Source: a virus (lineage: Duplodnaviria; Heunggongvirae; Uroviricota; Caudoviricetes). Taken from it: DNA of 18,168 nt. Made by a program: the position numbers. The stretch's first letter is position 1; each line of letters begins with the position of its first letter. The stretch is from the IMG/VR virus record IMGVR_UViG_2740892218_000008, one strand, 5' to 3'. This document shows, piece by piece, positions 1 through 1,574 of the stretch.

Positions 1-1574
1 CCAGTGATGAGCACAGACGCTATGGCAACAGCCCCACCACCAATAGCAGCTGCAACAGCCTTGCGTAATGATGGCGACATTATTCACCTCTCGCAGCCTT
101 ACGCTTGTCTTCTTTTATCTTGAAATAAAGGTTTGTCAGGTACGTCAGCAGGCCAAACACCAGACTACCCAGCACGCCTATTGCCACCCATTGGGATGGG
201 GAGACTTTGTCCAGCAGTTGCAGTAACCAGTATCCCGTCCCCACCGCTGACGTGGTGTATGACACACCTGTTGTGATTTTTTCCATCTGGTACATACCCC
301 GTCTCCCGTTATCCGGAAGTTGACAACAATAAAAAGCCACCAGTTAATTACTGATGCCCCAGGTATCCTATTATCGGACCGGTGTTGACGATTTCGCATA
401 ATCGTCAACACCAACCAAATATAAGCATATCCAATTGAAATATTTTCCGGTTAAAACTTAGGAAGAGTCTCTGTTCCCGTACATACTGACTTTTTCAGAG
501 CACAGCCCCCCCCTTCATCGCATCAACAATTGAGTAGAGGCTTATTTATTACACTGATTTTATTATCAAAGTTGTTATCAGGTTATCTGTATAAAAATCC
601 ATGTATAACGATTATATCTACAATAAAATAGATATTATTCGCAATGGCGTATACATAAATCAGTATAAGGTTGATAACAATATATCCTAATCAATAGGAA
701 TATATGCTTGACAATTACTATTACTATCAAATAAAAAAGAAATTAATATATAGCTTCTCCACTGAGGGCCTTCCTCCGCCAGCGCAGATTTATTTTCCCA
801 TTACCCTCTGTACTGGCGTTTTTTTATTACGATACTGTAGAGCGATTCGTGCCTCCCCCACCACGATCACACCGTCAATTGCCAAGGGATAATACTTTAT
901 TTACTAATCTTCATTCTTCTCCCATAAGCACGGATAACGACACAAAACAGAGCAGAAAAGGTACAGAATAATCATCTCTTTGCAATCTGAATAAAAAAAA
1001 GCTGCGCGATGCGCAGCCTGCAATAACAGGAATGAAGATAATATGGAATAACATTAGGATATATGTATGGTGTCTCTCGCGGTGAGTTCGATCGATGTCA
1101 CAGCTCCACATACCTACACCGATGTCCCACGAGCAAGAAAGCTCACCATACGACACTCTTTTTAATAAACATCCAATGAAAAAATCAAGCATTACTTATA
1201 CCGATTTTTATCTCAGACCACAATAATGTCACAATCCAGCGCACAAGAAGTGGTAATACTCTGGCAATCACTTATCGGATCTTTCGTTCTTCCTGGTCAA
1301 CCTTACCATCCGTACAGATAACCAAATAAGGCACGTTAATTACCATCTGAGTCAGTTCCCGCTTTTAAAGAGTTGCATCCTTACAAACTTTTTACCCAAG
1401 ATACCGGACATTGCGACGCACCTTTGTTTGGATGTACCAGCTCCCAAAAGCAATCTACCCACACAGAAAATCACACCTATCACTCCACAAACTCCCCACA
1501 CAGGAGATTTTGTTGATATGCATCGGGCGAACATATATAAAAAAAGCTCGCCGAAGCGAACCTGATTATGAATC

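Follow-up and report, generated by a model that had tools for sequence, protein, structure and literature searches.

The interval between the tRNA cluster and the holin gene of a virus recorded in IMG/VR as IMGVR_UViG_2740892218_000008 is best read as an island of small RNA (sRNA) genes beside decayed cargo. The window, by which we mean the whole stretch of 18,168 nucleotides (nt) that was analysed, is a 434-like lambdoid prophage with its late genes on the minus strand. We put the probability at about 80% that the interval (296-1538) is the late-operon leader, or "moron site", of a prophage of the Escherichia albertii type, and that it carries this sRNA island without a protein gene. The original prediction had called the interval gene-free. 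It is indeed without protein genes, but the label does not fit a region that holds two recognisable sRNA genes and two pseudogene remnants (Table 1). The same prediction had proposed a source of non-coding RNA, and this proposal is supported: a PasD/STnc100-family gene occupies 993-1151 on the minus strand and an Esr41-like gene about 743-826 on the plus strand. It had also stated that it would be refuted if homology searches revealed a well-known conserved element, and this is what was found, as both convergent sRNA pairs (Tree et al. 2014, PMC4104026) and the PasD family (PMC8550237; Zhu et al. 2026) have been described. The arrangement is therefore already known, and the window adds a divergent E. 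albertii-type instance of it. The observed part of our account consists of homologies, structural fit, synteny, pseudogene lesions and non-coding statistics.

The lead to the minus-strand family came from Rfam scans of related loci and not of the window, on which Rfam gave nothing significant at gathering or relaxed thresholds. The STnc100 model (RF02076) matches in JLK-2012, immediately behind tciB (107 bits), and in the Stx2c phage PA28, immediately behind stx2B (207.7 bits), and has sub-threshold matches at the equivalent place in the O157 and E2348/69 prophages (PasD1, 37.7 bits; PasD2, 41.4 bits). In E2348/69, the Rfam matches and those of our own family model coincide with PasD1 (NC_011601 1060260-1060432) and PasD2 (741157-741328), which are Hfq-dependent, Northern-verified and equated with EcOnc13 (PMC8550237, Pearl Mizrahi et al. 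2021). PasD and STnc100 have been merged into one family, and Q and LpxR lie within 10 kb of more than 98% of PasD matches (Zhu, Shabalina and Storz 2026 preprint). Ten family copies, among them PasD1, PasD2, the JLK-2012 STnc100 and six from E. albertii and Escherichia sp., can be aligned with the window from end to end, promoter included. Nine of the ten aligned members have TTGAYT, and GTTTATTAAAAA is near-invariant, with one or two substitutions in four members. The promoter block begins right after the tciB stop codon. A like layout directly precedes PasD1 and PasD2 in enteropathogenic Escherichia coli (EPEC), where their 5′ ends have been mapped at GCAUGG (PMC8550237 table S6).

We then asked how well the window copy fits the structure of the family, using a covariance model (R1) of nine members from which the window had been left out. 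R1 matched the window at 992-1151 on the minus strand over model positions 1-175, with 70.3 bits and an E-value of ~5e-18 by a rough calibration, and the next match in 18 kb scored 23 bits. In the model alignment the P1 closing helix (GUAUGGUG/CACCAUAC) forms all eight of its pairs, one of them through a compensatory change from C-G to U-A; P2 forms three of four pairs, P2a three of three, and the terminator eight of eight. The predicted 159-nt RNA has a minimum free energy of -51.6 kcal/mol (z = -3.05 relative to shuffles). Across the family there are 13 double-sided pair changes compared with 5.3 in shuffles, and 94% of cells are paired compared with 39-46% when the partners are slid; both figures come from an alignment fitted to the model. 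The original prediction had noted a strong minus-strand terminator at 993..1019, and this is the 3′ end of the PasD-like sRNA gene: a hairpin of nine pairs, six of them G-C, at 1019-999 is followed by U8, and it is the strongest terminator in the first 3.2 kb.

The gene order is also that of the family, with lpxR, Q, the tRNAs, the tciAB remnants and the sRNA following one another. Like PasD1, PasD2 and STnc100, the window gene lies on the sense strand directly after tciB or moron cargo, downstream of Q and near lpxR. It shares with them the promoter TTGAYT...GTTTATTAAAAA, a 5′ domain closed by pairing of the 5′ end with ..CACCAUAC, and a single-stranded U-rich stretch (UAAUGUUAUUCC..UUAUC) followed by the terminator GGCUGCGCAUNGCGCAGC and a U run. 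The window copy differs from these relatives in that about 16 nt of the central hairpin are gone and another hairpin stands in their place, in the sequence of the second helix, and in the putative seed, which is CCUGUUAUUGCAGG in the window, UGUGAG in PasD and CCCUUUAUUUCC in STnc100. This variant is found in E. albertii and is absent from 5,426 complete E. coli genomes. Loci of Xenorhabdus, Photorhabdus and Flavobacteriales that were also matched by a degenerate terminator pattern were discarded, as they have only the terminator in common with the family. R1 has one weak second match in the window, at 13178-13314 on the plus strand (23.3 bits, E ~2e-5, rough), in the early-left operon just after a 149-amino-acid (aa) open reading frame (ORF) at 12836-13285. 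Because it ends in a hairpin and a U run, it is probably a tL-type terminator region and not a second family member.

The segment just 5′ of the terminator differs between copies. The window has CCUGUUAUUGCAGG there, a tandem pair of E. albertii copies has CCUGUAGUUUCAGG and CCUGUGGAUUUUUCAG, and STnc100 has CCCUUUAUUUCCGG; five different segments occur among the ten family copies. In PasD this segment is the seed UGUGAG, complementary to a CUCACA motif in the targets (PMC8550237 fig. S5). The scaffold of promoter, closing helix and terminator is kept across the family while the seed is exchanged. The tandem copies belong to E. albertii NBRC 107761 (L018 2110-2613), where two PasD-like genes about 290 nt apart, each with a promoter and a terminator and with differing seeds, are followed by a convergent sRNA-like unit with the terminator GCCAGCG...CGCUGGC. 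In the window, the late-strand transcript 3′ of the PasD-like gene contains perfect complements to the single strand of the sRNA, of 12 nt (680-691 with 1053-1064) and 10 nt (907-916 with 1030-1039). We judged these complements compatible with chance in A+T-rich DNA.

The second sRNA gene was recognised from the same set of relatives. In the O157 and E2348/69 prophages a weak Esr41 match (RF02676, 32.3 bits) lies convergent to PasD1 at a distance of 177 nt, and the window is collinear with this arrangement; the PA28 paralogue scores 28.1 bits. Smith-Waterman alignment of the window with the homologue in E2348/69 PP4 and O157 gives a score of 51 over 76 nt, where shuffles give 16.5 +/- 2.4 and none of 1000 reaches it, and blastn finds 75% identity over 61 nt. 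With the plus-strand unit alone as query, blastn against the E. coli genomes gave no match at that database size. TTGACAA is invariant in the four aligned Esr41-like members, the small hairpin is GAGG/CCUC as against GGGG/CCCC in the comparison with the prophage homologue, and the terminator CGCCAGCGCAG...CUGUACUGGCG followed by U7AU is common to both. The fold is more stable than expected (z = -3.0 to -3.8). An Esr41-like covariance model was dropped, as it had three sequences only and MAFFT misaligned the long terminator loop.

Canonical Esr41 consists of a 5′ hairpin, a single-stranded UUUUCUCCA, a small hairpin and a terminator. The window has UUCUCCAC, the small hairpin and the terminator, but lacks the 5′ hairpin. 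It shares with Esr41 and the prophage paralogue TTGACAA, a single-stranded UUCUCCA, a small G/C hairpin, the terminator CCGCCAGC...CUGGCG with U7AU, and the position convergent to PasD. Its long terminator loop is like that of the paralogue. Canonical Esr41 is found on the SpLE1 island beside iha and not in a lambdoid late region. The EPEC homologue, annotated as E2348C_1013 (1060613-1060672, minus), is abundant and Hfq-dependent in published tables from the ligation and sequencing of interacting RNAs (RIL-seq), with a log2 fold change of -2.9 without Hfq, and forms 263 chimeras with the entC 5′ untranslated region and 537 with the nlpD-rpoS intergenic region. Canonical Esr41 represses cirA, chuA and bfr (PMC5286369). 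The Esr41-like promoters contain a Fur-box-like site in the same place, the spacer between -35 and -10, with 14 of 19 positions matching GATAATGATAATCATTATC in the window (710-728) and 15 of 19 in O157 (L002 5106-5124). Such a site would be in keeping with targets related to iron, as known for Esr41 and, with entC, for the EPEC homologue. It is no more than suggestive, since an equally good match turns up in 30 of 500 shuffled versions of the A+T-rich block; the canonical Esr41 promoter reaches only 12 of 19.

Taken together, the two genes form a convergent pair, with the minus-strand unit ending at 993 and the plus-strand unit at about 826, each in a hairpin and a U run. This is a known architecture. 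Tree et al. (2014, PMC4104026) reported that moron insertions are tolerated downstream of PR′, where transcription is antiterminated by Q, and that sRNA genes lie there in convergent orientation, in their example 3′ of stx2B; a further seven Sakai prophages showed the same. As in those pairs, two facing sRNA genes with intrinsic terminators lie in the window downstream of Q and PR′, with moron cargo on one side and the lysis cassette on the other. In PA28 the tRNAs are followed by stx2A, stx2B and STnc100 (4365-4570, minus), which abuts AsxR (4311-4363, plus). The window departs from that model in three respects. Its antisense partner is Esr41-like (about 70-85 nt) rather than a 51-60-nt anti-sRNA of the AsxR/AgvB type, and the Rfam AsxR and AgvB models found no match in the window at E <= 10; its 3′ ends are 166 nt apart instead of abutting; and its cargo is a pseudogene.

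The cargo itself can be identified. After tRNA-Gly and a homologous spacer, as in the tciA-tciB module of JLK-2012 and many E. coli prophages, the window retains the tciA start codon (ATG 1411) and first residues (MSGILGKK, as against MFGIFGKK in JLK-2012). The module is intact in JLK-2012 but not in the window, where 13 nt and, further on, about 430 nt have been deleted and the frame is shifted and interrupted by premature stops. The tciA frame ends after 19 codons because the 13-nt deletion shifts it, and homology resumes in another frame (ELTQMVINVPYLVICTDGKVDQEERKIR*), spanning TciA residues ~21-52. With JLK-2012 TciA as query, tblastn places residues 21-47 at 1364-1284 (48% identity, E = 8e-6) and residues 1-8 at 1411-1388. 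The 3′ two-thirds of tciA are deleted, and an intact TciA ORF of about 143 aa with a TerB domain is not present. The Pfam TerB model (PF05099) found no match in the tciA fragment of 30-45 aa, which is too short for it. Of tciB, residues 35-48 match window 1247-1206 by tblastn, and window 1159-1248 is 70-78% identical to the tciB 3′ end and sRNA promoter in the 434, O157, E2348/69 and E. albertii loci. The roughly 430 nt lost comprise the remainder of tciA and most of tciB. On the other side, window 1389-1575, which runs from the start of tciA through the spacer and the terminator of tRNA-Gly, shows 73-79% identity with the corresponding interval of JLK-2012 and E. coli prophages, in which tciA follows tRNA-Gly. 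The spacer also contains a 21-nt direct repeat (1451-1471 and 1488-1508; 81% identical, 37 nt apart; CUGUGUGGG(U/G)AG(A/U)UUG on the late strand), which could once have served to regulate the tciA promoter.

By analogy with the characterised homologues, we propose the following for this strain. In the lysogen, each sRNA gene would fire from its own sigma-70 promoter and stop at its own terminator. The products would be sRNAs that bind Hfq, each made up of a single-stranded U-rich part, a hairpin and a tail of U residues, and they would pair with mRNAs of the host and of islands: the PasD-like RNA through its lineage-specific seed CCUGUUAUUGCAGG, where PasD has UGUGAG, and the Esr41-like RNA through the conserved CU-rich UUCUCCAC. 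A discrete, Hfq-bound RNA has been demonstrated for PasD1 and PasD2 in EPEC only (PMC8550237), and we infer the same for the PasD-like RNA here; the Esr41-like RNA would likewise be expressed and Hfq-dependent. The terminators at 993-1019 and 330-356 may shield S-R-Rz, from the holin onward, from the sRNA promoters. After induction, Q-modified polymerase would pass all terminators and reach the lysis genes. The earlier idea of a late-transcript regulatory region is plausible only in this ordinary sense, in that Q-modified polymerase must pass the sRNA terminators and the holin-proximal hairpin.

Several observations weigh against two working sRNA genes. Some of them (the missed Rfam thresholds, the low R1 score, the lost central helix and seed, and the varying spacing of the plus-strand promoter), together with the demonstrable wreck of tciA and tciB, speak for a rival reading in which all of 296-1538 is DNA decaying after the loss of its cargo, with the sRNA-like stretches as non-functional relics that give no stable RNAs. 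The Rfam thresholds were missed: RF02076 gives the window copy 12.9 bits (E = 5.6, at 1024-1181; cut-off 47), and Esr41 gives 18.6 bits at 740-827 on the plus strand (cut-off 102; E = 1.1 corrected for 4227 families). With R1 the window copy scores 70 bits and the other members 141-194. All eight pairs of the central helix (helix 4) are gapped in the window, where another local hairpin is predicted, and the PasD seed UGUGAG is lost; given the low score and these two losses, the copy could be decaying. Its identity to relatives (73-80%) is not clearly above that of the flanking pseudogenes (65-75%), so that this comparison does not demonstrate purifying selection, and diversity within the lineage, at about 1.5%, is too low to reveal it. 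The -10 elements of both sRNA promoters match the consensus poorly and were missed by a promoter scan. In the Esr41-like gene, the terminator stem is marred by a C.A mismatch and its loop is 18 nt long. A tandem ATTACT-ATTACT lies within 714-727, in the spacer of the Esr41-like promoter, and one 6-nt unit (722-727) is absent in four of eight E. albertii strains (L037, L038, L039 and L042), so that the spacing between TTGACA and the candidate -10 differs among strains. Finally, one block of the interval, discussed below, is described here but not explained.

We nevertheless consider wholesale decay unlikely. The lesions concentrate in the coding remnants. In the sRNA unit the promoter block is still near-invariant, the closing helix pairs perfectly over 8 bp, with one compensatory change, and the terminator with its U8 is likewise free of defects. 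The PasD-like RNA folds better than shuffles, by the z-score given above, and turnover of the seed is normal in a family with five segments among ten copies.

The block without an explanation (357-707) stands where the collinear loci of O157 and E2348/69 have only some 45 nt. By blastn, neither the 5,426 complete genomes of E. coli (E <= 0.1) nor the 50,697 phage records contained a match to it, and it is near-unchanged in ten further copies of the prophage. An origin by local duplication of the adjacent sRNA region was considered and rejected (Smith-Waterman score 17, shuffles 15.5 +/- 2.3). On the minus strand, the palindrome at 381-412 and the hairpin at 338-356 fold together (-40.9 kcal/mol, z = -7.65). 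The C tract at 501-508, which is G on the late strand, has eight residues in the window and L031, seven in the IMG/VR contig L003 and in L037, and nine in L035, L036 and L039; this variation is either real slippage or homopolymer sequencing error. The holin leader that follows is 95% identical to the S leader of the JLK-2012, O157 and E2348/69 prophages, and phage 434 has an annotated terminator at the equivalent place upstream of S. A reading in which 357-707 and the holin-proximal hairpins form a third, undescribed RNA element, either a structured leader or an sRNA built from the hairpins at 381-412 and 338-356, that sets transcription or translation into the holin, perhaps modulated by the C tract, and in which the E. 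albertii PasD variant with its new seed would target a regulon other than that of EPEC PasD, seems to us unlikely. We regard the block as filler specific to this lineage, which provides the plus-strand promoter with its upstream region, and give a smaller probability to a cis-acting role in holin expression.

The original prediction had equated the interval with the slot that holds stx in Stx phages and had suggested that it might be a vacated cargo site. Both ideas are partly right. In PA28, stx2A and stx2B sit between the tRNAs and the next element, which by position makes only about 1189-1543 of the window equivalent to the stx slot, and not the remainder of the interval. Cargo has indeed decayed here, but that cargo was tciA and tciB, which encode a TerB-family protein and a DUF3927 membrane protein. 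That a classical cargo gene (Shiga toxin, nanS-p or nmpC) was deleted from the interval is very improbable. Such genes do occur in this region, with stx2AB between the tRNAs and STnc100 in PA28, nanS-p between the sRNA and S in 434 and JLK-2012, and nmpC between Q and S in 434B. However, tblastn with Stx2cA, Stx2cB, NanS-p, DUF826, DUF1378 and NmpC found nothing in 296-1575 (none at E <= 1 for Stx2cA and Stx2cB), blastn against the Q-S regions of PA28 and 434B matched the S leader only, and no remnants other than those of tciA and tciB are present. The O157 and E2348/69 prophages, moreover, likewise have the PasD and Esr41-like pair near S without nanS-p.

Also very improbable is a hidden small protein gene, whether at 911-1192 on the minus strand (93 aa), at 704-892 on the plus strand (62 aa) or in a RefSeq-style 133-aa frame: the RefSeq hypothetical protein WP_012578864.1 spans the homologous region in O157 and E2348/69 and gives 30% identity by tblastn over window 747-1055, but this frame is split in the window into ORFs of 62 and 40 aa, the candidate ORFs overlap the sRNA genes and their terminators, ORF lengths fit chance, families give no match, and the EPEC E2348C_1013 transcript acts as an sRNA in RIL-seq. 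The prediction that the interval has no convincing ORF was confirmed. The longest ORF, the 93-aa frame, compares with 75 +/- 19 aa in dinucleotide shuffles, 15% of which reach 93 aa; the minus strand has 21-24 stop codons in each frame; and the ten ORFs of 33-93 aa in the interval had no Pfam or PHROG match. WP_012578864.1 (133 aa; L002 5143-5541 and L007 2801-3199, in the O157:H7 and E2348/69 prophages) runs antisense across PasD1 and takes in the Esr41-like unit. It and the E2348C_1013 coding sequence are probably a misannotation, in which two sRNA genes have been read as an ORF.

The compositional features reported in the original prediction were recovered as well. The A+T-rich block at ~540..760, which is the stretch upstream of the Esr41-like promoter, has a G+C content of 0.22-0.26 across 526-750 in 150-nt windows, and TTATC/GATAA is repeated, with 12 occurrences in 296-1538 where 4.1 are expected (1 of 2000 shuffles reaches 12) and four within 540-760 where 1.1 are expected (39 of 2000 shuffles). 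Besides the terminator of the PasD-like gene, a scan found minus-strand terminators at 1563-1544, 356-338 and 2903-2882; in total, the first 3.2 kb have five terminator-like sites, compared with 2.6 +/- 1.6 in shuffles.

To place the prophage, we ran megablast and blastn with the interval from tRNA-Gly to the holin, both on the set of 5,426 complete E. coli genomes and on the collection of 50,697 phage records. Only the holin leader (296-360, 95%) and 190 nt beside tRNA-Gly (73%) matched. Two contigs, one from IMG/VR and one from a metagenome, contain the interval at 99.95-99.98% identity. An exact 30-mer covering the seed and terminator of the PasD-like gene had one match in IMG/VR and one in metagenomes, both from the same prophage, and none in the GTDB species representatives. 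The neighbouring membrane protein, in a 237-aa form, is recorded in identical form in 288 blocks of the assembly collection. Among these are CP030783.2 and CP043258.1, identified in a published table of strains as E. albertii 2012EL-1823B and RM10507. Because E. albertii strains carry the identical membrane protein, we assign the lineage to E. albertii prophages, which explains the absence of the interval from the E. coli genome set. In eight E. albertii loci no gene has been called between the membrane protein and the holin.

Two further observations concern the flanking genes. The 237-aa form of the membrane protein matches Pfam PF27470 ("TfpB"), and its DNA is mosaic: 2485-2777 is 95% identical to the E. 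coli prophage version and 2079-2275 only about 72%, a step in identity that indicates a recombination junction within the gene. The tRNA sets vary among phages (Ile, Arg, Arg in PA28; Asn, Thr, Gly in JLK-2012), and the Thr-Gly end with the spacer that follows it is common to the window, JLK-2012 and E. albertii L019.

Table 1. Features of the tRNA-to-holin interval and its surroundings, in window coordinates, listed in the direction of late transcription.
Feature	Position	Strand	Basis or remark
lpxR	4111-5070	+	
Q	2949-3722	-	
tR′-like terminator	2903-2882	-	terminator scan
Membrane-protein ORF, 249 aa	2028-2777	-	
tRNAs Met(CAT), Arg(TCT), Thr(TGT), Gly(TCC)	1575-1884	-	
Intrinsic terminator directly 3′ of tRNA-Gly, UUCG-loop hairpin and U run	1544-1563	-	terminator scan; kept in JLK-2012 and E. 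albertii L019
Conserved spacer from tRNA-Gly to tciA (region upstream of tciA), minus strand rich in G and U	1412-1543	-	homology
tciA pseudogene (TerB family), frameshifted and truncated	1275-1411	-	tblastn, DNA alignment, translation
tciB (DUF3927) remnant, C-terminal part only (..IVTLLWSEIK..), joined to the tciA stump by deletion	1189-1271	-	blastn, tblastn, translation
Promoter of PasD-like gene: -35 TTGATT 1188-1183; GTTTATTAAAAA 1170-1159	1152-1188	-	family alignment
PasD/STnc100-family (EcOnc13-type) sRNA gene, ~159 nt	993-1151	-	covariance model, synteny
U-rich single strand with lineage-specific putative seed segment	1017-1040	-	family alignment
Terminator hairpin / U8 of PasD-like gene	1001-1019 / 993-1000	-	
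Spacer between the 3′ ends of the convergent sRNA genes	827-992		collinear with the 177-nt PasD1/Esr41-like spacer of O157 and E2348/69
Esr41-like sRNA gene, 5′ end uncertain (743-756)	743-826	+	Smith-Waterman, synteny
Parts of Esr41-like gene: single-stranded UUCUCCAC; small hairpin; terminator stem; U7	755-762; 764-776; 777-818; 819-825	+	
Promoter region of Esr41-like gene: TTGACA 708-713, candidate -10 at 731-736 or 744-749	708-752	+	
Orphan lineage-specific block, upstream of the plus-strand sRNA promoter	357-707	.	
Perfect 12-bp palindrome; C tract; A+T-rich stretch	381-412; 501-508; 526-707		within the orphan block
Conserved holin (S) leader: hairpin 338-356, U run 330-337, Shine-Dalgarno GGGAGA ~302-307	296-356	-	
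Class II holin	starts at ATG 295	-	

These results turn an apparent gap in the prophage into annotated features. The stx-equivalent slot is narrowed to about 350 bases, which held tciAB here and not a toxin. Two sRNA families have divergent members in the late leader of the E. albertii prophage, and these escape surveys based on BLAST as well as the thresholds of Rfam. The swapping of seeds on a retained scaffold is the pattern that would be expected if prophages diversify the targets of their regulatory RNAs by recombination.

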